Below the pieces are notes generated by a model. The model searched no databases. It saw only the letters and a program-made list of their open reading frames with translations, and had not been told where the DNA came from. A program made the translations under genes and the position numbers. From Planctomycetota bacterium (lineage in GTDB: Bacteria > Planctomycetota > UBA1135 > UBA2386), in assembly GCA_036160175.1 (NCBI GenBank), contig JAYYEE010000227.1, positions 1-37,341 of the forward strand: a stretch of 37,341 bases of DNA. The letters are read 5' to 3'. How positions within the stretch are numbered: position 1 is the stretch's first letter; every line of letters begins with the position of its first letter. Positions 1 through 21,219 of the stretch are shown piece after piece.

Positions 1-1
1 G

Positions 2-625
2 ACCGCGCGCGCGGTCGTCGAGAGCGGGACGTTCCTAGAGGTCGTGGTGGCGCCGGCGGTCGACGCGGCGGCGATCGAAGAGCTGCAGAAGGCCAAGTGG
101 GGGCCGAACGTGCGCGTGCTCGATCTCGGCGGCGTGCCGGCGACGGGGCACGCGGCGGGCCTCGTCAGCCGTGAGGTGAGCGGCGGCTTCTTGCTGCAGA
201 CGGCCGACGTGCCGCCGCAGCCGCCGGCCCAAGAGGTCGCGACCAGCCGCGCGCCAGCAGACCACGAGCGAGTTGCCTTGGCGTTCGCCTGGACGGTCTG
301 CAAGCACGTCAAGTCCAACGCGATCGTGCTGGCGCGCTCGGCCGAGGACGGCGCGTGCTACACCGTGGGGATCGGGGCCGGACAGATGAGCCGGGTCGAC
401 TCTGCCAAGATCGCCGTCGACAAAGCCGGGGACGCGACCCAGGGCTGCGTGGTGGCGAGCGACGCGTTCTTCCCGTTCGCGGACGGAATGCTGGTCTGCG
501 CCGAGGCCGGCGCGACGGCGGTCATCCAGCCGGGCGGGAGCAAGCGCGACGCAGAGGTCGTCGCGGCTGCAGAGGAGCGCGGCATGGCGATGTGGATGAC
601 CGGACAGCGGCACTTCCGCCACTAA
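2..625 (+). CDS. purH: Bifunctional AICAR transformylase/IMP cyclohydrolase PurH, C-terminal part (5' end lies outside the window)
   Basis: The frame is open from nt 2 (..[10 protein letters not shown]..). The C-terminus ..[36 protein letters not shown] is the conserved PurH end. TAA at 623-625. Confidence 0.9.
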
Positions 626-633
626 CGCGACGG

Positions 634-1005
634 ATGGTGGCCCAAAAAGACATCCAGCGCGCGGCCGACGACGTGCTGCTCGGCGCGTCGATGCGGCAGG
701 TCGCAGACGAATTCCGCGAGCGGTTGATCGAGGACTTCGGGTTCCGCCCCGAAGAGGTCACGCAAGACACGTTCAAGGACGAGGTCGGGGCCTTCATGCG
801 CGCGTTGGCGCGGCATCTCGGGGACCGGCACGCGTCCGACGCGCGGGTGGGTGAGGCCTTGGAGACGTGGGTGCGCTTCAGCGACCACTATGAGGCCTGG
901 GACGCGCTGCTCGCGGGCGCCTTCGAGATCGAGGGGCGAGACGCGTTGATTCGGCGCGGCAGGATGCTCTTTCCGGGGCCGTTGACGCGGCACTGGGACG
1001 AATGA
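634..1005 (+). CDS. Hypothetical protein (123 aa, acidic, no family recognised)
   Basis: ATG at 634 lies 8 nt after the purH stop. GC3 bias is strong. The stop overlaps the yggS start (ATGA at 1002-1005), suggesting translational coupling. Confidence 0.55.
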   Translation: MVAQKDIQRAADDVLLGASMRQVADEFRERLIEDFGFRPEEVTQDTFKDEVGAFMRALARHLGDRHASDARVGEALETWVRFSDHYEAWDALLAGAFEIEGRDALIRRGRMLFPGPLTRHWDE

Positions 1006-1712
1006 GCGCGCGCGCAGGCAACTTCGAGCGAGTGCGGGCGAAGATCGCTGCAGCCTGCGCCGTCGCCGGCCGCGAGCCCTCCGAGGTCGAGCTGGTCGCC
1101 GTCAGCAAGCGACACCCGGCGGCTGCGGTCGCGGCGGCGTTGGCGACCGGGCAGCGAGTCTTCGGAGAGAACCGGGTGCAAGAGCTCAAGGTCAAGGCGT
1201 CTGACTTCGCGGGTGCCGAGGAGCGAGGCGGCGAAACGGGCGGCATCCAGTGGCACCTCATCGGTCCGCTGCAGACCAACAAGGTGCGCGACCTGCTGCG
1301 CGTCCCGGGCCTCGCGCTGCTTCACAGCTGTGACCGCCGCAAGCTCGCGGACGTGCTGCAGCAAGAGCTCGACCAGCGGGGAGAGCGGCTCGACGTGCTG
1401 CTGCAGGTAAACACAAGCGGCGAAGAGCAGAAGCACGGCTGCACCGTCGACGAAGCGCCTGCGTTGCTAAGCCACCTGCTCGAGCGCTGCCCCGCGCTCT
1501 CCGTGCGCGGCTTAATGGCGATGGGGCCGCTGCAAGGCAGCGCGCGCCAGGTCTTCGATCGCACCGCAGCGCTCCGTGACGACCTCCGCAGCCGCTCCGG
1601 GCTCGGCCTCGAGACGCTGAGCATGGGCATGTCGGGCGACCTCGGCGACGCGATCGCGGCGGGCTCGACCATGGTACGTGTCGGCACGGCGCTGTTCGGC
1701 CCTCGTGATTGA
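1002..1712 (+). CDS. yggS: YggS-family pyridoxal-phosphate homeostasis protein (PLPBP)
   Basis: Matches include LVAVSKRHP (PLP lysine), VFGENRVQE, WHLIGPLQTNKV, LLQVNTSGEEQKHG, LSMGMSGD and VRVGTALFG. Confidence 0.9.
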   Translation: MSARAGNFERVRAKIAAACAVAGREPSEVELVAVSKRHPAAAVAAALATGQRVFGENRVQELKVKASDFAGAEERGGETGGIQWHLIGPLQTNKVRDLLRVPGLALLHSCDRRKLADVLQQELDQRGERLDVLLQVNTSGEEQKHGCTVDEAPALLSHLLERCPALSVRGLMAMGPLQGSARQVFDRTAALRDDLRSRSGLGLETLSMGMSGDLGDAIAAGSTMVRVGTALFGPRD

Positions 1713-1743
1713 GCCTCGCCAGCGCGTGCTTTAGCGTTCGCGC

Positions 1744-2565
1744 GTGGCGACCAAGAAGGCAAGCGGCGACAAGGCCAAGAAGGGTGGCGCGAAGAAGGTC
1801 GCCAAGAAGGCGCAGAAGAAGGCGACCAAGCACCGTCGCCCAGCCGCGGCCGTCGTCGCGCCGCCCGCTGGACCGCCCCCGGCGCTCCCCGCCCTGCTCG
1901 CGCGGCTTGAGCGCGCAATACCGACGCCGCGTTGCGAGCTGGACCACCGCGACGGCTGGACGCTGTTGATCGCGACGATCCTCAGCGCGCAGAGCACGGA
2001 CAAGATGATCAACACGGTGACGCCGGCGCTGTTCGAACGCTGGCCGACCCCGGAGGCGCTCGCCTCTGCCCCGCGCGAGGAGGTCGAGCAGGCCGTGCAC
2101 CGGACCGGTTTTTTCCGAAACAAAGCCAAGGCGATCCAGGGCGCGAGCCTCGCGATCCACACCGAACACGGCGGCGAGGTTCCGCGTGACCTGGACACGC
2201 TGGTCAAGCTGCCGGGCGTCGCGCGCAAGACCGCCAACGTCGTGCTGGGCATCGCCTATGGGATCCCCTCAGGGATCGCCGTGGACACCCACGTGTCGCG
2301 GGTCAGTCAACGGTTGGCGCTGACCGCCGAGAAGAACCCCGAGAAGGTCGAGCGCGCGCTGTGCGAGCTGCTCGACCAAGATCAGTGGATCGGCACTGGT
2401 CACCGGATCCTGTTGCTCGGGCGCTACGTCTGCTTGGCGAAGAATCCAGACTGCGCCAACTGTCCGATCAACGAGCTGTGCCCGTCGCGCGCGGCTGATC
2501 CGCTCGGTCCGTGGGAAGATCGCGCTGCGCACAGCGCGGTGCTCGTCGACGCGCGCGGCGCGTGA
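1744..2565 (+). CDS. nth: Endonuclease III (Nth) with a Lys/Ala-rich, histone H1-like N-terminal extension
   Basis: GTG start. HhH-GPD core: LIATILSAQSTD, LPGVARKTANVVL, IAVDTHVSRV. 4Fe-4S motif C-x6-C-x2-C-x5-C in CLAKNPDCANCPINELC. The N-terminus is MATKKASGDKAKKGGAKKVAKKAQKKATKH followed by a Pro/Ala linker. Confidence 0.9.
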   Translation: MATKKASGDKAKKGGAKKVAKKAQKKATKHRRPAAAVVAPPAGPPPALPALLARLERAIPTPRCELDHRDGWTLLIATILSAQSTDKMINTVTPALFERWPTPEALASAPREEVEQAVHRTGFFRNKAKAIQGASLAIHTEHGGEVPRDLDTLVKLPGVARKTANVVLGIAYGIPSGIAVDTHVSRVSQRLALTAEKNPEKVERALCELLDQDQWIGTGHRILLLGRYVCLAKNPDCANCPINELCPSRAADPLGPWEDRAAHSAVLVDARGA

Positions 2566-2575
2566 GCCTATTAGC

Positions 2576-3490
2576 TCAGCGGCAGGCGGCGGCGAACTCG
2601 GTCGCAGCGCAGCGCCAAGTGCGGCGGCTGCCGGGGCGCGTCGCGCGCTTCGCGCGCAGCGCATGCGGGCGCGCCAACAGCTGCCGCAGGGCGCTCGCGA
2701 CGACGTCATCCGTTGCGTCGATCGGCAAGATCGTGCGCGCGTCCTCGTCACCGAAGCTGCGCAGCTCGCCTGTGTCGAGCCCCAGCAGCGGCAGCCCCGC
2801 GGCAGCCGCCTCTGCGGCGGCCATGCCGTAAGACTCGCTCGCGCTCAGGGTCGCGAACAGGTCGTGCTCGGCGTAGAGCTCGGCGAGTGCGGTAGGCTCG
2901 ACCGCCTCTCGGATCGTCACCGGCGCGCCCAGGGCCTCTCGCCGCAGAGCCTCTACAGCTTGTGGCGCCGCGGATGTGCTCCCGACGAGCGTCAGGCGCC
3001 ACGGAAGCGCCGCGCCGCGCAGGGCCGCGAGCAGTCGGCGCGGCCCCTTGGCCTCGGGCATGGTGCCGGCGCAGATGACCGCGGGGGTGTCGTCGCCGGC
3101 GCGCGCCCGCGGCGTGAAGCAGTCGTCGACGCCTGGCCGGACGAGCGCGACGGCGTCCACCGAGGCGCGCGCGGCCGCCGCCGTGCTCGCGCCCGTCGCG
3201 ATGGCGCGGCGCACGTCTGCGGCCCAACCAGCCAGCTTCGGCTGCGTGTGCAGCAGCGGGATGACCCCGGCCGGAAACGGCCGCGCGGTCAGCTCCGCGA
3301 ACCAGCCGTCGACTACCAGAGTGAGGCCTGGCGCCGCCTCCTGGAGGGTGCGCGCGTGTTGATGAAGATGCTCTGGCCGGACGGTCTCGCGCCGGGCGTC
3401 TGTGCCGAGCGCCGCCGTGATCTGCTCTTGGTAGCGGAACCCGCCCGAGATGAGCCCTGCTGGCCGCGGCGGCTCCAGCAGCGTGATCAC
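2576..3490 (-). CDS. Glycosyltransferase, GT4 (group 1) family
   Basis: C-terminal E-x7-E signature ESYGMAAAEAAAAGLPLL. I chose the GTG start at 3490 because it overlaps the upstream stop (GTGA at 3487-3490). The longer ORF to 3583 would overlap the upstream gene by about 100 nt. Confidence 0.75.
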   Translation of the reverse strand: MITLLEPPRPAGLISGGFRYQEQITAALGTDARRETVRPEHLHQHARTLQEAAPGLTLVVDGWFAELTARPFPAGVIPLLHTQPKLAGWAADVRRAIATGASTAAAARASVDAVALVRPGVDDCFTPRARAGDDTPAVICAGTMPEAKGPRRLLAALRGAALPWRLTLVGSTSAAPQAVEALRREALGAPVTIREAVEPTALAELYAEHDLFATLSASESYGMAAAEAAAAGLPLLGLDTGELRSFGDEDARTILPIDATDDVVASALRQLLARPHALRAKRATRPGSRRTWRCAATEFAAACR

Positions 3491-3882
3491 CCGATCGGCC
3501 CCTCGTAGCTGGCCCACGCGACGCGGCTCTCTTCGAGCGTCACCTTGAGGCCGCCGGTGAAGCGGTCGCCGAGCGCGGCGCATACTTGTCCGTGGACCCA
3601 GCGCGCGAGGAATTCGGTCGTCGTGTTCTGGCCAGAGAACTGCTCGAGGTCGTCGAGGTTGGTGAAGCGCAGCGGGTCAAGCACGGCCTTCAGCGTGTCG
3701 GTAGCGAGCCCGATGTCGATGACGATGCCGTCGGCGTCGACGTCTGCGGCCGCGTACTCGGTGATGACCTCGTAGGTCGCGCCGTGGAGGCGCTGCGCTG
3801 GGCCGAAGACCGCGCCCGACAGGCTGTGGGCGATCATCACGTGGTCTTTGACTGCGACTCTGAATGCGGCGGCGTTTGGCAT
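3487..3882 (-). CDS. 6-pyruvoyl-tetrahydropterin synthase/QueD-family protein, non-canonical active site
   Basis: 131 aa with the PTPS fold pattern: F.V.V....IAHSL ... RLHGATYEV ... VTLEES. The catalytic Cys, the second His of HGH and the Asp-His pair of canonical QueD/PTPS are absent (see findings). Confidence 0.75.
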   Translation of the reverse strand: MPNAAAFRVAVKDHVMIAHSLSGAVFGPAQRLHGATYEVITEYAAADVDADGIVIDIGLATDTLKAVLDPLRFTNLDDLEQFSGQNTTTEFLARWVHGQVCAALGDRFTGGLKVTLEESRVAWASYEGPIG

Positions 3883-3891
3883 GCGGTGATC

Positions 3892-4860
3892 TTATTCGTA
3901 AGCAAAGTGCGGGCAGAGAGCGTCGAGCTCGGATTGGTAGAGCGCGGCGAAGGTCTCGGGCGCGTCGAGGAACGGCGTCGGCGGTCCGATCAGGCGGTCG
4001 AGGTCGTCGTCGCAGAGCAGCGAGAGCACCGCGCGCGTCCGCGCTGCGTGGCCCTCCGCGCGACGGGCTCGCGCGACCGCGCCTACTTGCGACGCATGAA
4101 GCCGCTTTCGCTGCGAGTGGAACGCGCCGCCGAGCTGCAGCGACACGGCTTGGTCGCCGTGCCAAGACAGCTCTACGACGAGACCCTCAAAGCCGACGGC
4201 GTCGAGGGCGAGCTGTAGGCCTGCGCCGCTGGCGCTGGCGTGTAGCGCGTGGGTGAACGCCCCAGGCTCAACCTGTTCGGGGGCCGCTACGTCACGGACC
4301 CAGGGCAGCGCCGCGGCGAACGACCGTCGCTCGGGGTCGCGATCGACGACCAGCGCCGCAGGGCGGCCAAGGTCGCGAGCGAGGACGAACGCACACAGCA
4401 GCCCGACTGGCCCGGCCCCGATGACGACCGCCCGGTCGTCACCACTCAACTCGGCGTCCCAGACCGCGTTCCGCGCGGTCTCCAGGTTCGGGAACAACGT
4501 CGCCCTGGCGTCTGGAACCTCGTCCGGGAGCCAGACCAGCTCGTCGGATGGCGCCACGGCGCGCTGTTGGTGCGGCCGCATCAAGAACGCGCGCCGCCCG
4601 CGATCTGCGCCGGACGCGACGCGCCCGACGAAGCTGTAGCCATAGAGTAGGGGCAGCTCGAAGCTCCCCTGCATGCCGCGGCAAGCCATCTCGGCGTGCA
4701 GCGACGCCGGGACGCGCGCGAGCCCGACGAGACGCTCTGTGCCAGGGCTGACGCCGGTGCAGATCGCGTCGACGGCGACGGCGCCGGGGCCGAGCGGCGG
4801 GAGGTCTACGGCGCGCAGCGCGCCGTGGCCCGCCCGTTCGATCCAGTAGCCCAGGGTCAT
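3892..4860 (-). CDS. Medium-chain (MDR) alcohol dehydrogenase-family oxidoreductase, BchC/sorbitol-DH-like
   Basis: N-terminal GroES-like part with ICTGVSPGTE. Rossmann motif VVIGAGPVGLL. I chose the ATG start at 4860, which overlaps the upstream stop (ATGA at 4857-4860). An alternative GTG lies at 4875. Confidence 0.7.
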   Translation of the reverse strand: MTLGYWIERAGHGALRAVDLPPLGPGAVAVDAICTGVSPGTERLVGLARVPASLHAEMACRGMQGSFELPLLYGYSFVGRVASGADRGRRAFLMRPHQQRAVAPSDELVWLPDEVPDARATLFPNLETARNAVWDAELSGDDRAVVIGAGPVGLLCAFVLARDLGRPAALVVDRDPERRSFAAALPWVRDVAAPEQVEPGAFTHALHASASGAGLQLALDAVGFEGLVVELSWHGDQAVSLQLGGAFHSQRKRLHASQVGAVARARRAEGHAARTRAVLSLLCDDDLDRLIGPPTPFLDAPETFAALYQSELDALCPHFAYE

Positions 4861-5837
4861 GATCCGGGCCGGCACGTGAGCAGGATGTGCCCGTCGAGGA
4901 TCGCGTGGTCCATGCGCACGCGCAGCCCGTCGTCGACGTGCTCCACCGGCGGCAAGGAGAGGCTCGGCAAGCCAGCGCCGAGGATCATCGAGGCGATGTG
5001 CACCTGGAGCAGGTTGATCGCGCGCGCTTGCAGGAACGAGGAGAGCACGCCAGCCCCGCCTTCGAGGTAGACCGAGTAGATGCCGCGGTCTCGCAGCGCC
5101 GACAAGATCGCGGCCGGCGGCAGTCGTCCGTCGACGGCTTCCACGCGGTGCATGACGACTGCGACATTGGGCGGGGCGACGCCGCGCGAGCCTTCGACGA
5201 AGACCTCGCAGCCGGGCGCTGACATCAACGCGAGGTCGCGACCTTCGGTGATCGCGCGCCCGCGGCCGCTGACAACGACGCGGCGTGGGTCTGCCCCTTC
5301 GACGTGCCGGACGGTGAGCTTGGGGTCATCGTGGAGCGCGGTCGTCGCGCCGACCATGACCCCGTCAAGGAGCGCTCGCATCCGGTGAGAGTGATGCTGG
5401 TCGGCGGCGTTCCCGATCCACTGGGACTGTCCGTTCTCACAGGCGATCCGCCCGTCGAGGGTCTGGGTGACGTGGCCTGCGACGAAGCTCTCTCCGGCGC
5501 GCCGGGCGCGCGCCGCGCCGATCAAGATAGGGAGGTAGACGCGCGCGGCAGCGGCCAGCTCAGGTTCCAGAGCGGCCCCGGCTGGGACGTGGAACACGGG
5601 GAGGCCGTCAGGGTCGCTGCGGTAGACGGGGGCGCTGTCGTCTGCTTCGTCGAGGGAGCCTGGCGCAACCTCCACGAGCAGCGCGTCGACGCTGCCGCGC
5701 GCCATCGGCTCGGTGAGCGGCTCGCAGATCCACGCTCCTCTCCGCACGAACTGAACCGCGTCCACGTCGGACTCGAGGAGGCGCCGGGCTTGCAGGAAGG
5801 CAGGCCACGGCATGCTTTGAGAGAGGTCGCAGTGCAT
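4857..5837 (-). CDS. RibD C-terminal-domain (pyrimidine reductase/DHFR-like) protein with an N-terminal extension of about 115 aa and unknown function
   Basis: RibD_C pattern from about residue 117: HVTQTLDGRIA..G.SQWI..HSHRMRALLDGVMVGATTALHDDPKLTVR..PRRVVVS..YLEGGAGVLSSFL. There is no deaminase domain. An alternative start lies at 5813. Confidence 0.75.
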   Translation of the reverse strand: MHCDLSQSMPWPAFLQARRLLESDVDAVQFVRRGAWICEPLTEPMARGSVDALLVEVAPGSLDEADDSAPVYRSDPDGLPVFHVPAGAALEPELAAAARVYLPILIGAARARRAGESFVAGHVTQTLDGRIACENGQSQWIGNAADQHHSHRMRALLDGVMVGATTALHDDPKLTVRHVEGADPRRVVVSGRGRAITEGRDLALMSAPGCEVFVEGSRGVAPPNVAVVMHRVEAVDGRLPPAAILSALRDRGIYSVYLEGGAGVLSSFLQARAINLLQVHIASMILGAGLPSLSLPPVEHVDDGLRVRMDHAILDGHILLTCRPGS

Positions 5838-5983
5838 TCAGTCGGCCGTGGTCGCTGCGCGGCAGAGGGCGCGCATAAGTCTAGCCCGTCGAGGTGCTGA
5901 CGTCGCTGCTCCGAGCGCATGCGGAGCTTGGCGTTATTCCGCGGTCCCGCCCTGGCGCCGGACTGCCGCTGCCTGAGTGGGAT

Positions 5984-6694
5984 ATGCTACATATTGTGAT
6001 CTCCGCGAGCCTGACATCCTGGTCGCGCGTCCAAGCGGTGGCATGGGTCGCTGTGCTCATTTGGAGCGCGGCGGCTGTCGACCCGGAGTCGACGCGCGGC
6101 TGCGTGGCAGCAGGTGCCAGCGTGAGTCTGATGTCCTTGGCATGGGTCCTTCGCGCGCCGCGCACGGTCGCCGACGTCATTACATTGCTCCGCGCCGCGA
6201 TCGTCGTGGCGGTGCTCTGCGCGGCGCGGTGGCTCAGCGCGTCGGAGTGGTGGCTCTGGAGCCTGCTCGGCCTCGCGCTCGCAGGCGACCTGTTAGACGG
6301 AGCCGTCGCTCGAAGGCTCGGCGCGTCGCCGAACGGCGCGTCCTTGGACATGGAGTGCGACCAGCTGAGCGTGCTGGTGATGTCCTGGTTGGTTGTCGCG
6401 CGCGGCGGCTGCGTGCACGTGCTGCTGCTCCCCGCGATGCGCTACGCGTTTGTGCTCGCGGCCTGGGTCGCTTCGGTCCCAGCGAACAACCCGAAGCCGA
6501 TCAAAGGGGACAACGCCCGCGGTCGGGTGGTGTGCGCGATGGTGGTCGTGGCGCTCTTGTCGGCCCTCGCCCCGGCGACGTCGTTGGCGTTTGCAGATGT
6601 CCTGACTGGCGCAGCTGTCCTGCTCTTGTGCTGGTCGTTCGCGAGCGATTGGAGCTACCTGTTCGCGCGGCGTCGCGCGGAGGCCGGGACATGA
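5984..6694 (+). CDS. CDP-alcohol phosphatidyltransferase-family membrane protein
   Basis: Family motif D-G-x2-A-R-x7-G-x3-D-x3-D is present as DLLDGAVARRLGASPNGASLDMECD, and the protein has multiple hydrophobic helices. The start is uncertain: GTG 5894, ATG 5984 or ATG 6131. Confidence 0.75.
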   Translation: MLHIVISASLTSWSRVQAVAWVAVLIWSAAAVDPESTRGCVAAGASVSLMSLAWVLRAPRTVADVITLLRAAIVVAVLCAARWLSASEWWLWSLLGLALAGDLLDGAVARRLGASPNGASLDMECDQLSVLVMSWLVVARGGCVHVLLLPAMRYAFVLAAWVASVPANNPKPIKGDNARGRVVCAMVVVALLSALAPATSLAFADVLTGAAVLLLCWSFASDWSYLFARRRAEAGT

Positions 6695-7308
6695 GCGTCG
6701 CGGACTACGTCGTGCTCGCGTCCTACGTCACGCTGCTGCTGGAGATCGGGCTGTTCCCGATCGCGAGCGAAGCGAGCGCCGTGCAGCTTGTAGGCGGGCG
6801 CACGGAGTCGCGCGCCCCTGCGATGATGGCCGCCCGCGCGGCCCCGCTGCCGACGCGGCTGCTGCGCTATCTCCTGCCAACCGCGCTCTGTGTTTCGCTG
6901 TTTGTGCTACCGCCCCTGGCGGTGCTGTGGCCCGCGAGCCGCATGATCCTGGCGCCGTGGTCGGCGCCTTGGCTTGTCGCGCCCGGGGTCGCAGCCGTCG
7001 TCGTCGGTCGCGCGCTGACGTTCGGCTCCGTGTTGCAGCTGCGGGCGGCCAAGCGTCGCGACGAGCTCCCCACTGGCTGTTTCCGCCACTCTCGCAATCC
7101 AGGGCTGGTCGGGATGTTCCTGATGTACGCAGGGCTCTGTGCAGCCGTCGGCGGCCCTTGGCTGTGGCTCGGCGCGCCGCTGTACTTCCTCAATATGCAC
7201 GCGCGCGTGCGGCTCGAAGAGGCCGAACTATCGGTGCGCTTCGCAGGGTCCTGGCAGGACTACGAGCGCGCAGTCCCGCGTTACCTTCCGCTCCCGGGGC
7301 TGCGTTAA
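6691..7308 (+). CDS. Membrane methyltransferase of the ICMT/PEMT (isoprenylcysteine carboxyl / phospholipid methyltransferase) family
   Basis: ATG 6691 overlaps the upstream stop (ATGA). C-terminal signature HSRNPGLVGMFLMYAGL...LYFLNMHARVRLEEAELSVRFAGSWQDYERAVPRYLP, with about 4-5 TM helices. Confidence 0.75.
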   Translation: MSVADYVVLASYVTLLLEIGLFPIASEASAVQLVGGRTESRAPAMMAARAAPLPTRLLRYLLPTALCVSLFVLPPLAVLWPASRMILAPWSAPWLVAPGVAAVVVGRALTFGSVLQLRAAKRRDELPTGCFRHSRNPGLVGMFLMYAGLCAAVGGPWLWLGAPLYFLNMHARVRLEEAELSVRFAGSWQDYERAVPRYLPLPGLR

Positions 7309-7312
7309 CGCT

Positions 7313-8032
7313 GTGTCTGCTCCTCCCGTATCGCAAGCGGACGTCGCAGCTTGGTTTGACGCGACCTATCGAGACAAGGGGCTCGGCTACCTGCGCCCGC
7401 GTCGCGCCTATCCGATCTTCGTCCAGTTGTTGGGTCTACAGCCCGGGCAGCGGCACCTCGACGTGGCCTGCGGACCGGGTCACGTGTTGACGGCGGCGCG
7501 CGAACGCGGGCTGTTGACGAGCGGCGTTGACCTGTCTGAGGCGGCGATCGCCCTGGCTCGGAAGCTACACCCCGGCGTCGACGCGCAAGTCGGTAACGCA
7601 GAAGCGCTCCCGTACGAGGGCGCGTCGTTCGACGGCGTGACGTGCATCGGCTCGATCGAGCGCTTCTTGGACCGCGAGCGCGCGCTGCGCGAGATGGTTC
7701 GGGTGGCCAAAGAAACGGCGCGGTTCTGCTTCTTGGTCCGTAACGCGAACACGCTCACTTGGCGTCTTTGGCGGCAAGCGCTCGGCCGTCGCGAGGTCGC
7801 GGGCCACCAAGATGCGCAGACTATGGACGCGTGGCGCGCGCTGTTCGGGCGCTGCGGCCTCCGTGTCGCGCGCGTCTTGCCCGATCAGTGGCCGCGGCAG
7901 CGTTGGTGGCATCTGCTGCCCGGGCAGCGACCCCAGCCAGGCCGCGCGGAGCGGGTCGCGTCGGGGTGGTTGCCGCTGCGGTGGTGCAATGAGCTGATCT
8001 TCGTGCTGGAGCGCGAGCTTGGGCATGGCTGA
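7313..8032 (+). CDS. Class I SAM-dependent methyltransferase (Methyltransf_11-like)
   Basis: Motif I is HLDVACGPGHV. Post-I is GVDLSEAAIALAR, followed by FDGVTCIGSIERF. A GTG start 4 nt after the upstream TAA is assumed. Confidence 0.7.
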   Translation: MSAPPVSQADVAAWFDATYRDKGLGYLRPRRAYPIFVQLLGLQPGQRHLDVACGPGHVLTAARERGLLTSGVDLSEAAIALARKLHPGVDAQVGNAEALPYEGASFDGVTCIGSIERFLDRERALREMVRVAKETARFCFLVRNANTLTWRLWRQALGRREVAGHQDAQTMDAWRALFGRCGLRVARVLPDQWPRQRWWHLLPGQRPQPGRAERVASGWLPLRWCNELIFVLERELGHG

Positions 8033-8867
8033 ACGCCGCGTCGATGCGCTCTATGAGAGCCTCGCGCGCTTCCAGTGGTGGCGCGCTCGTCGAGGGGTCG
8101 ACGCCGGCTCCTTGGGCGGTCTAGAGATGCGCAAGCGGCTGTTGCCTGCGCGCCGCGCGGATCGTCCCGCTGACGGCGGCGCCGGGCTCGATGCGTGGTT
8201 GGATGTGCTGGTGGGGGGATTCGCGCAGCGTCGGGTGGTGGACCTCGGCTCGGGGTTCGGTGCGTCGCTGCTGCGGGCTACGGACGCGGGCGCGAGCTCG
8301 TGCGTCGGCGTAACGGCCAGCGAGTATCAAGCAAAGCGCGCAAACCAGGTCGCGCGCGCCCGCGGGGTCGACGACCGATGTCGCTTCGAGGTCGCGCAGT
8401 TGGGTGACCCGTTGCCATCGGCGGACGTGGTGCTCGCGGTCGAGTCCTTGGGCCACGCGCCCGACTTGGCCGGAGCGCTGGCGCAGGTCGCCTCGTCGCT
8501 CAGCAGCGACGGCGTCTTTGTTTGGCTTGAGGACCTGCTCGTTGCGCCGTCGCGCGACGACCCTGACGTGACCGCGCTGGCGCGCGCGTGGGCTTCGCCG
8601 CAGCTCCGGTGCCTCAGCGAGGTCGACGGCGCGATCGCGGCTGCCGGGCTGCGCGTGACGCAGTCGGTAGACCTCACCGAGCAGGTCCCGCGCAAAGACG
8701 CGGTGAAGCTCAACCGCGCGCGTCGTCGGCTGCACGCGCTTCGCGCGATCACCCCTCTGCCCGGGGCGCGCAGGGTCCTCGACGCCTTCCTCGGCGGTCT
8801 GCACCTCGAGCGCGTCTATGCGCGCGGGCTCGCGCGCTACCAGCTCATCGTCGCGCGTCCCGCGTAG
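8025..8867 (+). CDS. Class I SAM-dependent methyltransferase (second copy, different subfamily)
   Basis: Motif I is RVVDLGSGFGASLL, followed by CVGVTASEYQAKRA and ADVVLAVESLGH. ATG 8025 overlaps the upstream gene by 8 nt. An alternative TTG lies at 8019. Confidence 0.7.
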   Translation: MAERRVDALYESLARFQWWRARRGVDAGSLGGLEMRKRLLPARRADRPADGGAGLDAWLDVLVGGFAQRRVVDLGSGFGASLLRATDAGASSCVGVTASEYQAKRANQVARARGVDDRCRFEVAQLGDPLPSADVVLAVESLGHAPDLAGALAQVASSLSSDGVFVWLEDLLVAPSRDDPDVTALARAWASPQLRCLSEVDGAIAAAGLRVTQSVDLTEQVPRKDAVKLNRARRRLHALRAITPLPGARRVLDAFLGGLHLERVYARGLARYQLIVARPA

Positions 8868-8877
8868 GGTCAAGAGC

Positions 8878-8932
8878 GCGCGTCCGCGACGACGGTGGCG
8901 TCACCGCGGCGAGGGGGCTGCTGCGGACGCGC
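8878..8932. terminator. Candidate bidirectional terminator hairpin between convergent genes
   Basis: A perfect 10-bp inverted repeat, GCGCGTCCGC (8878-8887) / GCGGACGCGC (8923-8932), sits in the 71-nt gap between the methyltransferase stop (8867) and the modC stop (8939). The loop is long (35 nt) and there is no clear U-tract. Confidence 0.35.
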
Positions 8933-8938
8933 TGTCTG

Positions 8939-9991
8939 CTAGACCGGCGCGACGCGGATTTCGGTCGCTTTGATCGCGACCCAGACGTCACCACCATCGT
9001 CGAGGCCGAGCTCCTGGACCGCAGCCTCCGTGACTTCCGCGATGACGGGGAGCGCGCCGCCGACCCGGACACGCACACAGTCGACGCTGCGTTCGGTCCC
9101 GTCCACGGGAGCGCGCCACACGTTACGCGGAGATCCGGCCGGCCGCTCTCGGAAGAGCGCGACGGCGCGCGGGTGTAGGGTCGCGATCGCGGGCCCCTCG
9201 TGCGCAGTGCCAACCTGGACGCGAGCGCCGCCATCGACCGTGAGCGTGCGACCGCTGCAGACGCCGCGGATGCAATTCAGCCCGATCAGGTCGGCGACGT
9301 AGCGCGACGCCGGCCTACGGCTGAGCGCGTCGACGGTGCCGGCCTGCACGACGCGCCCGTTCTCGAGGACCGCGATGCGGTCGGCGAGCGCCAGCGCGTC
9401 GTCGAGATCATGCGTGACGACGACGCACGCGCCGCCGAACGCCTCAAGCTGACGTCGCAGCATGCGGCGTAGGGATAGTCGCGAAGAGGCGTCGGCGGCC
9501 GCGAGGGGTTCGTCCAGGAGCAGGGTCCCGGGCTTGGTCGCGAGCGCCCGCGCCAGCGCGACCCGCTGGGCCTGACCGCCGGAGAGCGCCGCTGGGTAGG
9601 CAGCGCCGCGCTCGGCTATCCCAACGCGCTCAAGCCACTTGTCGGCGACCGCGCGCGCGAGCGTGCGCGTGACGCCGCGGCTGCGGAGGCCGTACGCGAC
9701 GTTCTCGCGAATGGTCATGCGCGGGAAGAGCATGTGGTCTTGGAACACCACGCCGATGTCGCGCTGCTCTGGCGGCACGAACGCCCCGGGGCTGCCGTCG
9801 TCGACGAGGGCGCCGGCGAGCCGGATGTGGCCGTGATCAGCGCCACAGAGCCCGGCGATCGCGCGCAGCGTGGTCGACTTGCCCGCGCCGTTGGGGCCTA
9901 CGAGCGCGACCGTCTCGCCCGCTTTGACCTGCAGCGTCGCGGCGAGGGAGAAGGTCCCCAGCTGCATCGAAAAACGTGCGTCGAGGCTCAT
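8939..9991 (-). CDS. modC: Molybdate ABC transporter ATP-binding protein ModC with a C-terminal TOBE/Mop-like domain
   Basis: Walker A GPNGAGKST, signature LSGGQAQRVALARAL, Walker B LLLDEPLAA. ATG 9991 overlaps the modB stop (ATGA). Confidence 0.9.
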   Translation of the reverse strand: MSLDARFSMQLGTFSLAATLQVKAGETVALVGPNGAGKSTTLRAIAGLCGADHGHIRLAGALVDDGSPGAFVPPEQRDIGVVFQDHMLFPRMTIRENVAYGLRSRGVTRTLARAVADKWLERVGIAERGAAYPAALSGGQAQRVALARALATKPGTLLLDEPLAAADASSRLSLRRMLRRQLEAFGGACVVVTHDLDDALALADRIAVLENGRVVQAGTVDALSRRPASRYVADLIGLNCIRGVCSGRTLTVDGGARVQVGTAHEGPAIATLHPRAVALFRERPAGSPRNVWRAPVDGTERSVDCVRVRVGGALPVIAEVTEAAVQELGLDDGGDVWVAIKATEIRVAPV

Positions 9992-10779
9992 CGTCCGAAG
10001 AACCACTGGCGGCGGAGGAGGAACAAGATCGTCGCAGAGATCGCGAGCAGGACGACGCTGAGCGCCACCGCTGAGGACGGCTGGGACTCGAGCGCGTGGT
10101 AGACCGCTCGCGGCAGAGGGCGCGTGCGCCCATCGAAGCTCCCGGCGAACGTGATGGTCGCGCCAAATTCGCCGAGCGCGCGCGCCCACGCGACCAGCAA
10201 GCCAGCGCGAAGCGACGGCGCGATCATCGGCAGGGTGACCGTCAGGAACGCGCGCCAAGGCGAGGCGCCGAGCGTGGTCGCGGCGTCGGTGTAGCGGTGG
10301 TCAAAACTGCGCATCCCGCCCTCGACGGTGAGGACGAAGAACGGCATCGAGACGTAGGTGGTCGCCAGCACCACAGCGCTGCTCGAAAACGGGACCGTGA
10401 CGCCGAACCAGCTGTCTAGCGGTCCGCCGACGACACCGCTGGGCCCGAACGCAAGGAGCAGCGCGATCCCACCGACGATCGGCGGCAGGACCATCGGCAA
10501 GGTTGTCACGACGCGCACTGCGCTGCGGAGCGCGCCTGACCCTTGCGCGAGCCACGTGGCGAGCGGCAAGCCCATCGCGAAGCACAGCACCGTCGATAAG
10601 AGCGAGCACTCGAGCGACAACGCTAACGCCCGCAGCGTCTCGGCCGTCGTAAACAGCGCCATGAGCGCCGGCCATTCGACCTCTGCCGCGAGCGCGACGA
10701 GCGGCGCCGCGAACAGCAGCGCCGGCGCGGCGGCGATCGCTAGGATCCAGCTCGGCAGGTGCTTGCGGCGGTTATTCAT
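9988..10779 (-). CDS. modB: Molybdate ABC transporter permease ModB
   Basis: Multi-TM protein with the EAA-type loop DAATTLGASPWRAFLTVTLP and RALGEFGATITFAGS. ATG 10779 overlaps the modA stop (ATGA). Confidence 0.9.
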   Translation of the reverse strand: MNNRRKHLPSWILAIAAAPALLFAAPLVALAAEVEWPALMALFTTAETLRALALSLECSLLSTVLCFAMGLPLATWLAQGSGALRSAVRVVTTLPMVLPPIVGGIALLLAFGPSGVVGGPLDSWFGVTVPFSSSAVVLATTYVSMPFFVLTVEGGMRSFDHRYTDAATTLGASPWRAFLTVTLPMIAPSLRAGLLVAWARALGEFGATITFAGSFDGRTRPLPRAVYHALESQPSSAVALSVVLLAISATILFLLRRQWFFGR

Positions 10780-11543
10780 GGAGACGAGAACCCGTGCTCC
10801 GACAGGATGCGGCGGCCGTCCGGGCTGAGGACGAAGGCGATGAACTCCTGAGCGCCCGTCGCCTGCTCGCCGGTCGAGACCGTGACGATCGGATACGTCG
10901 CCTCGACGTTCAAGCGCGCGGGGATCGGGACGTTGTGCACTCGGCCGGCGGCCGCGAGCGCGTCGGATCGGTAGACCACGCCGGCGTCGGCGACGCCCAG
11001 CTCCACTTTGCTGACGACGGCGCGGACGCTGGGCTCATCTGACGCCGACCGGGCGGGCACGCCGGCGCGCTCCAGCAGCGCTCGCGCGTAGCGGCCGGCC
11101 GGGACCTGCGGAGCGCAGAGCAAGCAGGTGAGGTCTGGGCGCGCGAGATCTTCGACCGAGCGGATCGCCTTCGGGTTTCCCGGGCGCGTCACGATGGCGA
11201 GCGAGTTACTCGCGAATCGTCGTGGTTCGTCGGCCGTCAACCCAGCGTCGACGACCGCGTGCATCTGCAGTTGGTCTGCTGACGCGAAGACGTCTGCCGG
11301 CGCTCCTTGGCGTAGCTGCATGACGAGCTGCGGCGTCCCAGCGCAGTGAAGCTCGACCCGCAGTCCCGGCCTGGCCGCCGCGAAGCTCTGAACGAGCTCT
11401 TCAAAGGGCGCGGTCAGCGATGACGCCGCGAAGATCCGCACCGTGGGGCGCTCGTCCCCCGCGCAGCAGGCGACGGCCGCTGCGAGCGCGGCGACGCCGA
11501 GCGCGGCGCGGGTTCGTCGGGCTGTGGCGGGCTCGCGGGGCAT
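10776..11543 (-). CDS. modA: Molybdate ABC transporter periplasmic binding protein ModA
   Basis: A signal peptide is followed by VRIFAASSLTAPFEEL....GAPADVFASAD and ATYPIV, which is typical of ModA. Confidence 0.85.
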   Translation of the reverse strand: MPREPATARRTRAALGVAALAAAVACCAGDERPTVRIFAASSLTAPFEELVQSFAAARPGLRVELHCAGTPQLVMQLRQGAPADVFASADQLQMHAVVDAGLTADEPRRFASNSLAIVTRPGNPKAIRSVEDLARPDLTCLLCAPQVPAGRYARALLERAGVPARSASDEPSVRAVVSKVELGVADAGVVYRSDALAAAGRVHNVPIPARLNVEATYPIVTVSTGEQATGAQEFIAFVLSPDGRRILSEHGFSSP

Positions 11544-11600
11544 CGCGGCCAGTTGATACCCCAGCGCGGGCGCAGGCGCAGCCGTTTCTTGCGGCGCGGG

Positions 11601-12468
11601 CTATGGCGCGGCGCGCGCGACCAGCCCGAACATCAGCGGCATCGTCGGCGTGCCGTCGGGCACCGTGAAGCGGCGCCCAGGGAGCGCCTGCATCCCGTCG
11701 AAGAGCTCGCAGCCGTTTGCGTAGGGGTACTCCCTGACCTGCCTGATCCGCATCCCGGCGTCTACGACTGATTGAACGAGCTGCGCTACGGTCCACTGGG
11801 AGCCGAATGACCGCTCTGAGATGGCAAAATCTGTGACGCCGGCGTCGTAGCCCGACGGCGCGAGGCCGGCGCCGGCGGAGTCTCGCACGCCGTCCTCGTC
11901 GAGCGCCTTGTCGAGGAAGTAGGGGTCGCCGGTGAGGCCGCGCGCGCCGAGGCTCCACGCGAGCGGGTGCAACTCCAGCAGCACGATCCGGCCGCCGCTG
12001 CGCAGCACGCGCGCGACGCCGCGAGCCCAGCGGTCGAGGCCGCACAGCCACCCGACCCTGCCGTACGTCGAGAAGGCGACGTCGAAGCGGTCCTCAGTCC
12101 TCGCGAGCCAATCGAAGACGTCTGCGCGGATAAAGGAAGCGCAGATCTCCGCGTCGCGTGAGAGCTCGCGCGCACGCTATCGGGGCGTCAGCGATGTCAA
12201 CGCCGGTCACCCGCGCGCCCAAGCGCGCGAGGCTGATCGAGTCCTGGCCGCAGTTGCACTGCAGGTGCACGAGGTCAGCGCCGTCGCAGTCGCCGAGCAG
12301 TTCTAGCTCGTCTGGAAACAACGTCGACCCGCCTTGCTTCAGGAACGCGGCCTAGTGGAGCTTGTGGCTGTTGTGTGCGGGCGTGGCGGCGTTCCAAGAG
12401 CGGCGGTTCTGTTCATGGAGCGCGCGGCGCTGGTCTTCGTCGAAGCGCGGCGTGGTTGCCGCTACCAT
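11601..12468 (-). pseudogene. Class I SAM-dependent methyltransferase, disrupted by an in-frame TAG and a frameshift
   Basis: Translation from ATG 12468 gives MVAATTPRFDEDQRRALHEQNRRSWNAATPAHNSHKLH-TAG(12354-12352)-AAFLKQGGSTLFPDELELLGDCDGADLVHLQCNCGQDSISLARLGARVTGVDIADAPIA. Near 12170-12176 the sensible reading jumps one frame: ..ARELSRDAEICASFIRADVFDWLARTEDRFDVAFSTYGRVGWL..VLRSGGRIVLLELHP... to the stop at 11601. Confidence 0.65.
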
Positions 12469-12478
12469 CGCACATCTG

Positions 12479-13177: not shown

Positions 13178-13187
13178 AGCGCGCGGC

Positions 13188-15277: not shown

Positions 15278-15296
15278 GGTTAGGTGCTCCCTTTGC

Positions 15297-16049: not shown

Positions 16050-16228
16050 GGTCAGCTCTGGGAGGGGCCTCGTGGGGGGATTCCGTGAGTTTTGCGGGCG
16101 AGCAGTCTACAGAGGACAACCTCGCGGTCGACCTCAAATTGCGCCGCTCTGGGAAACCCGCCGGCGGCAGGAGCCGGCGCGCGCGCGCTGGGCGCCTCGG
16201 TGGCAAGGCCGCGTCGGCGCCGCGGGGT

Positions 16229-21205: not shown

Positions 21206-21219
21206 GCCAGGGAGCTCGC

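Follow-up and report, generated by a model that had tools for sequence, protein, structure and literature searches.

PTPS-IV proteins form a COG0720 subfamily for which FGPAQ serves as the signature motif, and a 2017 paper noted that they are associated with GTP cyclohydrolase II (GCHII) and with RibD_C (PMC5445326). SCO6650 of S. coelicolor (PDB 3D7J) is a structurally solved orphan. A review, citing unpublished work, assigns PTPS-IV a part in F420 synthesis (PMC5041015), and pterin glycosides are known natural products made by a PTPS together with a GT-B glycosyltransferase (PMC5683033, PMC4133829). Here we describe an eight-gene cluster in a 37-kb stretch of DNA (the window) from a high-GC Planctomycetota genome, and with moderate confidence in the explanation as a whole, we consider it the Planctomycetota form of a widespread, biochemically uncharacterized PTPS-IV (SCO6650-type) gene cluster. 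The initial annotation saw no nameable pathway; no known pathway fits, but the cluster is not wholly unprecedented, as the PTPS-IV/SCO6650 subfamily had already been named (PMC5445326).

The eight open reading frames of the initial annotation were each found at their coordinates with a single stop codon, and its junctions and domain assignments were confirmed. The features are as follows:

2576..3490, minus strand: GT4 (GT-B) glycosyltransferase, 304 aa; PF13692 and PF00534 (Glycos_transf_1/Glyco_trans_1_4)
3487..3882, minus strand: PTPS-IV (SCO6650-type) T-fold protein, 131 aa; PF01242, E 8e-21
3892..4860, minus strand: divergent MDR-superfamily, NAD-type dehydrogenase, 322 aa; NCBIfam and PDB matches
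4857..5837, minus strand: RibD_C-like reductase, 326 aa, first gene of the minus-strand operon; PF01872, E 8e-31
5838..5983, no strand: divergent intergenic (promoter) region between the operons, 146 nt
5984..6694, plus strand: CDP-alcohol phosphatidyltransferase (CDP-OH) of a dedicated subfamily, 236 aa; PF01066, 37.9 bits
6691..7308, plus strand: ICMT/PEMT-fold integral-membrane methyltransferase (PEMT-like), 205 aa; PF04191, 22.7 bits
7313..8032, plus strand: class I SAM methyltransferase MT2, 239 aa; PF08241, E 2e-18
8025..8867, plus strand: class I SAM methyltransferase MT3, 280 aa; PF08241 and PF13489

As read from the sequence, the minus-strand genes are joined by ATGA at 4857-4860 (MDR start and RibD_C stop), a 9-nt gap at 3883-3891 and GTGA at 3487-3490 (GT4 start and PTPS stop). 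On the plus strand, ATGA at 6691-6694 links the first two genes, 4 nt (7309-7312) separate the second from the third, and the last two overlap by 8 nt (8025-8032). The space between the operons had been given as 56 to 146 nt; the longer value holds and the shorter is discarded, because the CDP-OH gene begins at 5984, a start supported by a 236-aa product that is on record exactly (P0216) and by orthologs of 234 to 237 aa. The 146-nt region contained no Rfam match and no sigma-70 consensus. Divergence of CDP-OH from the PTPS operon is kept in 43 of 48 loci. On one side the cluster is flanked by purH′, a yggS-like gene and nth, and on the other by modCBA; the rest of the 37 kb contained no GTP cyclohydrolase gene, GCHII included, and genes for a phosphatase, a flippase-like protein or an AlkP-like enzyme are likewise absent from the window.

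The same eight genes recur with differing flanks in L003, L004-6, L007, L010, L089, L091 and L092, and the flanks are unrelated in the Planctomycetota loci L003, L004, L089, L091 and L092. All eight are also present in Bacteroidota locus L083 in a changed order, with PEMT-MT2-MT3 inside the PTPS-IV operon, directly 3′ of GT4. A second Bacteroidota locus, L022, likewise reordered, has seven of the eight gene families and, in addition, GCHII, FkbM and a sulfotransferase; its GT4 falls in the widespread GT4 family and not in the Planctomycetota-type family seen in the window. We conclude that the eight genes are a real module and not a chance neighborhood.

The PTPS-IV signature occurs in at least 588 species genomes around a core of MDR dehydrogenase–PTPS-IV–GT4–RibD_C, and the core with the CDP-alcohol transferase was found in six phyla. 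Gene content was counted in 59 non-redundant loci, each flanked by 6 kb or more of sequence to either side. MDR was present in 57, in each case directly upstream of PTPS-IV; RibD_C and GT4 were each present in 55, RibD_C being fused to GCHII in L087. The usual companions of the core are a dedicated divergent CDP-OH gene (at least 40 loci) and GCHII (32 loci), and frequent further ones are an LtaS/EptA-like membrane AlkP enzyme (38 loci) and an MprF-type flippase-like protein (PF03706; 22 loci). At least one membrane-lipid-type gene was found in 53 of the 59, and at the thresholds used no CDP-OH gene was detected within 10 kb in about a third of related loci. To this core, Planctomycetota and Bacteroidota add the three methyltransferases. 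Separately, a creatininase gene occurs in 15 loci; it has no role in our model and does not track FAPy-type GCHII.

The gene initially called PTPS-like is, on its sequence features, a PTPS-IV protein. It shares 52% identity with SCO6650 (E 9e-34), carries FGPAQ, and has HGA in place of HGH and no catalytic Cys (alignment A1). The canonical zinc/Cys site is lost, the third zinc His and the Cys being missing from SCO6650 as well, and the Glu that recognizes 2-amino-4-oxopyrimidine is retained in PTPS-IV. The RibD_C domain spans residues 122 to 297 behind an N-terminal extension of about 120 aa of unassigned fold; the protein contains no deaminase domain, matches RibD and DARP reductases in the PDB (E 1e-15) and falls under the riboflavin equivalog cutoffs (93 versus 156 bits). 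The MDR protein had no Pfam match above threshold, and its NCBIfam matches are at the level of BchC, Tdh (threonine dehydrogenase) and IolM, with alcohol dehydrogenases in the PDB; one ortholog carries ADH_zinc_N. Invariant features of the MDR protein are the motifs GxGxxG, S-x-G-T-E, P-H-Q and E-T-A and an acidic residue that follows beta2. The GT4 protein weakly matches MshA, BshA and GlcN-PG synthase, and MshA, BshA and sucrose-phosphate synthase are its nearest solved relatives. Assignments of RibD_C, GT4, MDR and the methyltransferases all lie under equivalog thresholds, so their substrates are putative.

GT4 orthologs are fused to GCHII (L004 and L011), to GCHII and a HAD phosphatase (L010 and L091) and to a methyltransferase (L064). 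Cluster-linked GCHII proteins keep the zinc Cys triad, and Tyr105 is kept in 33 of 36 sequences. The fusions link GCHII to the cluster, and the enzyme family suggests that the chemistry starts from GTP.

CDP-OH scores above the family cutoff (37.9 versus 22 bits), and its motif D-x2-D-G-x2-A-R-x7-G-x3-D-x3-D is complete and invariant in 18 sequences. The nearest solved relative by profile is PgsA (E 5e-10), and scores are well under the pgsA, pssA and PIPS cutoffs. In a reverse test, the most distant detectable CDP-OH homologs also lay beside PTPS-IV clusters. The window PEMT match is just below threshold (22.7 versus 25) and those of its orthologs are above it; its AF2 model is all-helical (pLDDT 90), with ICMT structures 5v7p and 4a2n as best Foldseek matches, and the family, with just 95 clusters among 5.8 billion proteins, is tied to this gene cluster. 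MT2, found together with the PEMT-like gene in Planctomycetota, L022 and L083, best matches TleD, YcgJ, RebM and a glucose O-methyltransferase in the PDB. MT3 is nearest to sugar O-methyltransferases, its best match being the D-glucose O-methyltransferase 6uv6 (E 7e-17; residues 67 to 257), followed by MitM and RebM. Relatives also carry LPG_synthase_TM flippase-like proteins and TM+AlkP proteins that begin with 3 to 5 TM helices and end in an AlkP domain (invariant D, E-S-x-G, D-Q, H and G-D-H). An AlkP-like gene usually follows MT3 in Planctomycetota (L010, L011, L089, L091 and L092), and the protein shows marginal profile matches to the LTA primase LtaP and a nonsignificant similarity to the LtaS type (E 0.03).

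None of the eight genes reached the equivalog cutoff of a known pathway enzyme (NCBIfam). Riboflavin, queuosine/BH4, F420 and phosphatidylcholine (PC) synthesis were considered and rejected, each being at odds with the cluster in at least one defining feature. The initial annotation had proposed a dedicated pathway; neither computational test, synteny or known pathways, refuted this proposal, which is supported and further strengthened by the in-cluster GCHII of relatives, fused to GT4, to GT4 and HAD phosphatase or to RibD_C, and by CDP-OH and PEMT-like subfamilies that occur essentially only beside this cluster.

We give about an even chance to a model in which the cluster would build a previously undescribed phospholipid head group, sugar-bearing and methylated, from a ribityl-aminopyrimidine or pterin derived from GTP; each of its chemical steps is proposed from family membership and gene linkage, and we infer that the product is a lipid. 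GCHII, encoded in the cluster in relatives and presumably elsewhere in the source genome, would convert GTP to 2,5-diamino-6-ribosylamino-4(3H)-pyrimidinone 5′-phosphate, and the RibD_C-like enzyme would reduce ribosyl to ribityl, without deamination because the deaminase domain is absent. Speculatively, the NAD-type MDR dehydrogenase and the metal-site-deficient PTPS-IV might remodel the polyol or ring; an attractive, equally speculative variant is C2′ oxidation and ring closure onto the 5-amino group to give a dihydroneopterin-phosphate-type pterin. A HAD phosphatase (GT4-fused in some relatives) would remove the 5′-phosphate, GT4 would add a sugar, and this sugar would be methylated by MT2 and MT3, both similar to sugar methyltransferases of the RebM/AtmM type. 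The dedicated CDP-OH enzyme would then join the alcohol with CDP-diacylglycerol, and the ICMT/PEMT-fold enzyme would modify the lipid-bound head group; these lipid steps are proposed because of the intact catalytic motif, the membrane location and the absence of a cytidylyltransferase. We note that soluble phosphodiesters are also possible products of CDP-alcohol transferases. Flippase-like and LtaS/EptA-like genes in many other lineages suggest that the head group is displayed on the outer face of the membrane or handed on there, and because the window has neither, the end product here may be the lipid as such.

One alternative, which we consider unlikely, takes the lipid as a carrier or donor only, its phospho-head-group ending on an envelope polymer (LPS/lipid A, periplasmic glucans or wall glycan). 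Transfer would be by an LtaS/EptA/OpgB-like AlkP enzyme, paralleling donation of glycerol-phosphate from PG and phosphoethanolamine from PE. The frequency of the TM+AlkP protein, its usual place after MT3, the LtaP matches, the flippase-like genes and, in loci of the Halomonas group, mdoG at a distance of about 7 kb favor such a transfer, but the LtaS-type similarity is not significant, mdoG proximity is limited to one genus group, and both AlkP-like and flippase-like genes are absent from the cluster and from the rest of the 37 kb. Also rather improbable is a soluble product (a glycosylated, methylated pterin/pyrimidine cofactor, pigment, signal or DIP-like phosphodiester solute), the membrane proteins serving only export or an unrelated task. 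Whereas pterin glycosides are a precedent, the solved GT4 relatives use soluble acceptors, MT2 and MT3 are akin to small-molecule sugar methyltransferases and CDP-OH went undetected in some loci, the CDP-OH subfamily is dedicated, catalytically intact in motif and divergently co-located, an integral-membrane methyltransferase lies within the operon, and no cytidylyltransferase would supply a CDP-alcohol donor beyond the general CDP-DAG pool.

We consider it very unlikely that two unrelated operons merely share a promoter region, the minus strand making a PTPS-IV metabolite and the plus strand an ordinary phospholipid by a Pss/Pcs/PgsA-type enzyme and PE-to-PC N-methylation by PEMT/PmtA-like enzymes. 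Planctomycetota contain PC, sources annotate CDP-OH as a PGP synthase, and CDP-OH, PEMT and two class I methyltransferases could resemble a phosphatidylcholine operon. The occurrence of CDP-OH orthologs beside PTPS-IV operons in phyla without the three methyltransferases, the arrangement in L083, the PTPS-IV clusters around distant CDP-OH and PEMT-like homologs, the low pgsA, pssA and PIPS scores and the absence of psd nearby argue against that reading. A flavin or deazaflavin role, as an alternative early riboflavin branch or in F420/FO synthesis, is scarcely credible. Riboflavin synthesis does begin with GCHII and a RibD_C reductase, and an unpublished remark ties PTPS-IV to F420, but the deaminase domain is absent, the conserved neighbors do not include RibB, RibH, RibE, CofG/H, CofC, CofD or CofE, and GT4, CDP-OH, AlkP-like and flippase-like genes would be left unexplained. 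Among the lineages in which the cluster occurs, Planctomycetota, Halomonas and Burkholderiales are not known for F420.

The proposed lipid head group pathway resembles several known systems in part. Early riboflavin synthesis in the archaeal/fungal order (GCHII, then DARP reductase) shares a RibD_C-family reductase with the window and a canonical-looking GCHII with its relatives, whereas the cluster has sub-equivalog scores, encodes no deaminase, lumazine synthase, riboflavin synthase or DHBP synthase, and would continue to glycosylation, methylation and membrane steps. Pterin glycoside synthesis in cyanobacteria and Chlorobium (GCHI, PTPS, sepiapterin reductase and pteridine glycosyltransferase) is alike in its kinds of enzyme (T-fold PTPS family, dehydrogenase/reductase and GT-B), but the cluster lacks the PTPS catalytic site, its relatives use a type II and not a type I GTP cyclohydrolase, and membrane enzymes are present. 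The logic of PI/PIM and mycothiol synthesis, in which PIP synthase of the CDP-OH family, a phosphatase and GT4 PimA/MshA act on a polyol phosphate, is matched by the CDP-alcohol phosphatidyltransferase, by a GT4 with MshA among its best named models, by the proposed polyol-phosphate substrate and by the HAD phosphatase fusion in relatives; the polyol would derive from GTP and not inositol, equivalog cutoffs are unmet, and methylation, PTPS-IV and MDR have no counterpart. Like PgsA with LtaS, PE with EptA and PG with OpgB, relatives pair a CDP-OH synthase with a TM+AlkP enzyme and a flippase-like protein, but the TM+AlkP enzyme is missing from the window, LtaP similarity is marginal and the head group would be another one. 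Compared with the SCO6650 cluster, the window lacks GCHII, flippase-like and AlkP-like genes, adds the ICMT/PEMT-fold and two class I methyltransferases, and has an N-terminally extended RibD_C where actinobacterial forms are about 230 aa without the extension. The two have in common FGPAQ, loss of the third zinc His and Cys, a RibD_C neighborhood and GCHII in relatives (PMC5445326), and MDR, GT4, CDP-OH, AlkP-like and flippase-like genes are shared features of the loci in Actinomycetota.

Eight genes occupy 2576-8867 of the window (GC content about 70%) as two divergent operons, listed here with their predicted products:

4857-5837, minus strand: RibD_C-like protein
3892-4860, minus strand: MDR-like dehydrogenase (medium-chain dehydrogenase/reductase)
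3487-3882, minus strand: PTPS-like protein
2576-3490, minus strand: GT4 glycosyltransferase
5984-6694, plus strand: CDP-alcohol phosphatidyltransferase (CDP-OH)
6691-7308, plus strand: PEMT/ICMT-like membrane methyltransferase (PEMT-like)
7313-8032, plus strand: class I methyltransferase MT2
8025-8867, plus strand: class I methyltransferase MT3

The initial annotation described both operons as tightly packed, and every junction (ATGA, a 9-nt gap and GTGA on the minus strand; ATGA, a 4-nt gap and an 8-nt overlap on the plus strand) was read in the sequence. Its domain-family assignments were upheld by Pfam and NCBIfam. The divergent spacer, for which it gave 56 to 146 nt, measures 146 nt; the shorter value fell away when the CDP-OH start was placed at 5984, a position that agrees with orthologue lengths and with a 236-aa database entry of identical sequence (P0216). 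Housekeeping genes flank the cluster as claimed, with purH', a yggS-like gene and nth on one side and modCBA on the other. At 1744-1900 (plus strand), nth encodes a Lys/Ala-rich, histone-H1-like N-terminal tail (MATKKASGDKAKKGGAKKVAKKAQKKATK...; about 50 aa) that precedes its HhH-GPD domain. Rfam gave no match at its gathering threshold across the window, and 5700-6100 gave none even at E up to 1; a riboswitch or RNA leader in the divergent spacer was dropped because these searches were empty; sigma-70 and terminator scans of the spacer were uninformative.

Elsewhere in the window, a sulfotransferase gene lies at 16229-17176 (minus strand), 7 kb from the cluster. Sulfotransferase genes were also seen at two related loci in other genomes, namely, L022 from Saprospiraceae (5212-6045, within the cluster and immediately after MT3) and L003 (a Sulfotransfer_4 gene at 10639-11496, near the cluster), and the association may be a coincidence. 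A radical SAM gene (19555-20592, minus strand) and a gene for a 398-aa class II aaRS-like protein that has the tRNA-synt_2 core only (20968-22164, plus strand) form a divergent pair that resembles the EpmB/EpmA pair of EF-P lysylation. A 1142-aa ORF at 25442-28870 (minus strand) with GATase_6 (249-385) and SIS (516-646) domains is GlmS-like at about twice the usual length and may be an over-extended ORF or a fusion.

To survey the module, one genome per species was scanned with two signature peptides, which gave at least 588 confirmed loci carrying the signature of PTPS-IV, the SCO6650-type subfamily of COG0720. The best 80 of these at least 588 loci were found in Planctomycetota, Acidobacteriota, Bacteroidota, Gemmatimonadota, Actinomycetota, and Alpha-, Beta- and Gammaproteobacteria. 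Neighbor families were defined by tblastn of the window proteins, ORF clustering with a GC3 filter and Pfam annotation of family representatives, antisense shadow ORF families being discarded by hand. At least one membrane-lipid-type gene was present at 53 of the 59 loci counted.

Table. Gene families near PTPS-IV, counted over 59 non-redundant loci where PTPS-IV has 6 kb or more of sequence on both sides.
MDR: 57/59
RibD_C: 55/59
GT4: 55/59
CDP-OH: at least 40/59
AlkP-like membrane protein (TM helices plus an alkaline-phosphatase domain): 38/59
RrnaAD-like methyltransferase beside or fused to GT4: 37/59
GTP cyclohydrolase II (GCHII): 32/59
LPG_synthase_TM (MprF flippase-like): 22/59
FkbM methyltransferase: 15/59
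Creatininase (no role given in the proposed pathway): 15/59

The complete eight-gene set recurs in other genomes. The two closest syntenic loci, L001 and L002, carry all eight genes between the same nth and modABC flanks as the window, plus three extra genes. One of these, following MT3, encodes a polytopic membrane protein of 542 aa, and the other two, between GT4 and nth, encode an OpuAC-type ABC transporter; all three (3364-4992 and 11288-13620) are cleanly missing from the window, where gaps of 71 nt (8868-8938) and 10 nt (2566-2575) are left. All eight genes also occur with unrelated flanks in L003, L004 to L006, L089, L091 and L092, and L003 and L004 to L006 share the two-divergent-operon layout. 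In L083 (Marinoscillum, Bacteroidota), the genes form a single operon, RibD_C-MDR-PTPS-GT4-PEMT-MT2-MT3, on which CDP-OH and an AlkP-like gene converge; the Saprospiraceae locus L022 has another arrangement again, with seven of the eight window families and a GT4 that groups with the widespread GT4 family, not with the Planctomycetota-type family of the window. PEMT-like, MT2 and MT3 were found only in Planctomycetota and these two Bacteroidota. Synteny, which the initial annotation had proposed as a check, was thus observed with unrelated flanks in Planctomycetota and in another gene order in Bacteroidota. Because gene content is kept while order and flanks vary, we conclude that the genes constitute a functional module.

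The window holds the most reduced version of the cluster seen, lacking GCHII as well as any AlkP-like, flippase-like or ~540-aa membrane gene, and its nearest PTPS-like relatives (60-99% identity) all come from Planctomycetota metagenome-assembled genomes. Larger neighborhoods were also noted. Near the Planctomycetota cluster of L091 lie three genes of the sulfatase/AlkP family and a second one of the ICMT/PEMT family (259-2193, 10290-14518, 15154-15708), besides a GT4-GCHII-HAD fusion. In nine Halomonas/Vreelandella-group loci (among them L027, L033, L035, L044, L064, L068 and L077), mdoG, a gene of periplasmic glucan synthesis (PF04349), is found some 7 kb downstream of the cluster.

The PTPS-like protein matched the PTPS/QueD T-fold family PF01242 over residues 9-128 (E 8e-21, 74.7 bits against a cutoff of 22.4) and SCO6650 of S. 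coelicolor (PDB 3D7J, annotated as uncharacterized) over residues 6-128 (E 9e-34, 52% identity). The paper on the SCO6650 structure is said to have reported neither zinc nor PTPS activity. In the window protein, two of the three zinc-binding His residues are kept, the third is Ala (HGH to HGA, within RLHGATY, A35 being invariant) and there is no upstream catalytic Cys. The T-T-E motif is kept, including E90, the residue that holds the 2-amino-4-oxopyrimidine ring in PTPS/QueD. Canonical PTPS-I, PTPS-II and PTPS-III catalytic motifs are CxxxHGH, CxxxxxHGH or ExxHGH (PMC5041015). A canonical PTPS/QueD enzyme was rejected both on the motif, which reads HGA, not HGH, with Ala-Gln-Arg (neither Cys nor Glu) upstream of LHG, and on NCBIfam equivalog scores (QueD, 37 versus 89.25 bits; 6PTHBS, 25.8 versus 125.5 bits). 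Residues 26-30 read FGPAQ, which is invariant in alignment A1 and is given as the PTPS-IV signature, credited to Phillips 2012 (PMC5445326). We conclude that the window gene, judged by its sequence, is a member of PTPS-IV.

GTP is the proposed origin of the substrate. Occurrence of GCHII (PF00925) and RibD_C in PTPS-IV neighborhoods had already been recorded (PMC5445326). RibD_C adjoins the PTPS-IV gene in the window, and GCHII, present in the cluster at 32 of the 59 related loci and fused to other cluster genes in Planctomycetota, is absent, so it must come from elsewhere in the genome. The pathway steps are linked by gene fusions. GT4 is fused to GCHII in L004 and L011, to GCHII and a HAD phosphatase in L010 and L091, and to a methyltransferase in Halomonas-group genomes; in L087, GCHII is fused to RibD_C. 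In cluster-linked GCHII proteins the zinc Cys triad is intact, and Tyr105, whose role is reported in work by Bandarian, is present in 33 of 36 sequences; with both retained, they look canonical and would form 2,5-diamino-6-ribosylaminopyrimidinone 5'-phosphate. The other three (L032, L080 and L082, all Actinomycetota) carry His at this position (context KVRTHVLQD) and match neither Tyr nor the Met that FAPy-forming SCO6655 reportedly carries. A FAPy-type GCHII acting with the creatininase as an ArfB-like deformylase, a hypothesis reportedly raised by the SCO6655 work, was unsupported, given Tyr105 in 33 of 36 sequences and His variants that do not follow creatininase presence.

The RibD_C-like protein, for which an exact-sequence lookup returned no record, was rejected as a riboflavin RibD or DARP reductase by score (ribD_Cterm, 109.9 versus 150.15; eubact_ribD, 93 versus 156.35; archaeal reductase, 71.3 versus 186.45). 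Pfam matched no deaminase even at E up to 1, and neither a deaminase partner nor RibB, RibH or RibE was among the conserved neighbor families. For the MDR, the window protein gave no Pfam ADH match (ADH_N/ADH_zinc_N), its orthologue in L089 has PF00107, and similarities were to NCBIfam BchC (E 2e-9) and Tdh (E 9e-8) and to a PDB alcohol dehydrogenase (4cpd, E 3e-6). Within the MDR family, GxGxxG is invariant and S-x-G-T-E, P-H-Q and E-T-A motifs are conserved, and an acidic residue after beta2 points to NAD. The window MDR (3892-4860, minus strand) finds its top PDB match, above bacterial alcohol dehydrogenases, in the accessory subunit NDUEG3 of respiratory complex I from Euglena gracilis (8iuf_E3, E 9e-7, residues 60-169). 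The nearest named relatives of GT4 are MshA, BshA and sucrose-phosphate synthase, and the acceptors of these relatives are small, often phosphorylated polyols or acids. MT3 is closest to the D-glucose O-methyltransferase 6uv6 (E 7e-17), MitM and RebM, and MT2 resembles the same group; this likeness fits methylation of the sugar added by GT4.

The plus-strand operon would be the lipid half of the cluster. CDP-OH matched PF01066 (37.9 versus a cutoff of 22), and the motif D-x2-D-G-x2-A-R-x7/8-G-x3-D-x3-D, which reads DLLDGAVARRLGASPNGASLDMECD in the window, has motif residues invariant in 18 sequences from all lineages; its sequence makes the protein a member of the CDP-alcohol phosphatidyltransferase superfamily. 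Specific known enzymes were rejected by equivalog (pgsA, 30.6 versus 109.1; archaetidylinositol-P synthase, 24.3 versus 180; archaetidylserine synthase, 17.1 versus 200), and the top PDB match of the family profile was PgsA at only E 5e-10. CDP-OH is divergent from and at most 3.5 kb upstream of the PTPS operon at 43 of the 48 loci where it was detected, a layout that is the same as in the window from Actinomycetota through Planctomycetota. In the reverse test, homologues of the window CDP-OH, including the most distant detectable, all adjoined MDR-PTPS-IV operons (L087, L088 and L089).

PEMT-like scored 22.7 against a PF04191 cutoff of 25 in the window, and its orthologues pass. Its AF2 model (pLDDT 90) is all-helical, with ICMT (5v7p, 4a2n) and then steroid 5-alpha-reductases (SRD5A) as best structural matches, and the modeled fold does not reveal the substrate class. 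The family is tiny, at 95 clusters in 5.8 billion proteins. PEMT-like genes at other Planctomycetota loci lie within complete PTPS-IV clusters, as do two of the three most distant members with long contigs (L090 to L092). The third, L090, lies among transposases (DDE_Tnp_1, IS66 and Transposase_mut, within 1-16627) with GT4, an FkbM fragment and a 545-aa protein, and looks like a degraded copy of the cluster. Phosphatidylcholine (PC) synthesis by PE N-methylation (PEMT/PmtA) was judged very unlikely, as no psd gene for PE supply was found near the cluster and the members of this rare family whose context was inspected lie mostly in PTPS-IV clusters. In the AlkP-like proteins, three to five N-terminal TM helices precede a C-terminal domain whose metal-site and nucleophile-like residues are invariant; by sequence, they share the LtaS/EptA architecture, with only marginal similarity to LtaP. 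Neither they nor the ~530-aa membrane proteins fell into any Pfam or NCBIfam family, and their PDB matches were only marginal.

We infer the following as the most likely mechanism, with about an even chance of being right. GCHII would open GTP, and the RibD_C-like enzyme would reduce the ribosyl group without deamination. The NAD-dependent MDR and PTPS-IV would then remodel the polyol or the ring, possibly with ring closure to a pterin, and the 5'-phosphate would be taken off. GT4 would glycosylate the product and the soluble methyltransferases would methylate it, after which the dedicated CDP-OH transferase would phosphatidylate it from CDP-DAG and the ICMT-fold enzyme would methylate the lipid-bound form. 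Most lineages would then use a flippase-like protein and an LtaS-like enzyme, whose presence suggests exposure or onward transfer at the outer face of the membrane; in the window organism, the lipid may be the end product.

Other outcomes were considered. One, which we regard as unlikely, is that the lipid is a mere donor for envelope decoration. A soluble product, either a phosphodiester or a glycosylated pterin or pyrimidine, is similarly doubtful. Less probable again is a GCHI-independent pterin route, in which GCHII, RibD_C reduction and MDR oxidation at C2' would lead to PTPS-IV-assisted closure of a dihydroneopterin-phosphate-type ring, followed by glycosylation, methylation and phosphatidyl anchoring. 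Such a route would yield a lipid without precedent, a pterin or aminopyrimidine anchored in the membrane. It would span at least six bacterial phyla, many of which would flip the lipid and then hand it to the cell envelope through the LtaS-like enzyme.

The genes could also be two unrelated operons, the plus strand encoding ordinary PC or phospholipid synthesis, a very unlikely reading that conflicts with the linkage across phyla and with the outcome of the reverse tests. PTPS-IV was assigned to F420 synthesis in a 2016 review, as unpublished work only (PMC5041015). A riboflavin or F420 branch is highly improbable, however, as a deaminase is missing and the conserved neighbors include neither rib nor cof genes for later steps; neither CofG/CofH (FbiC) nor CofC/D/E was among families conserved within 9 kb of PTPS-IV at 87 loci. 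Toxoflavin-type (ToxA-E) and methanopterin pathways seem unlikely, as their defining genes do not appear among the conserved neighbors.

PTPS-IV/SCO6650 has been an orphan with a solved structure since 2008, and its cluster is found in hundreds of species. The orphan is now tied to a GCHII-derived precursor, through the fusions, and to a dedicated CDP-OH and membrane methyltransferase, flippase-like and LtaS-like enzymes. These links give lipidomics a concrete hypothesis to test, namely that a nucleotide is the source of a new class of phospholipid head group or envelope decoration. It is of high interest, being directly testable in cultivable hosts; tractable carriers include S. coelicolor, Micromonospora, Halomonas/Vreelandella, Variovorax and Hydrogenophaga. 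Were the hypothesis right, GTP/pterin metabolism would gain a new branch and bacterial membranes a new type of lipid, which might explain some of the "unidentified aminophosphoglycolipids" that are routine in chemotaxonomy reports.

The claim of an undescribed pathway stands in that the cluster is real and strongly conserved, and is tempered in that PTPS-IV with GCHII and RibD_C was partly anticipated in the literature (PMC5445326). Full-text literature searches found no paper characterizing the cluster or linking PTPS-IV with CDP-alcohol transferases. The further claim that no known pathway fits was borne out: no cluster protein reached a named-enzyme equivalog cutoff among Pfam and NCBIfam profiles, and the window cluster lacks at least one defining feature each of canonical PTPS/QueD, riboflavin RibD, PgsA/PssA/PIPS and PC synthesis. 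It differs from the pterin glycoside pathway, which pairs a BGluT/PGT glycosyltransferase with an active PTPS, in that the window PTPS lacks the active site. In its logic, the cluster appears most like PI/PIM or PG/LTA synthesis, with a CDP-OH synthase, a GT4 and head-group processing, and would differ from these by its nucleotide-derived alcohol. We conclude that the window cluster belongs to the PTPS-IV/SCO6650 neighborhood, a known but uncharacterized kind, and is a new variant of this orphan cluster that is rich in methyltransferases and otherwise reduced.
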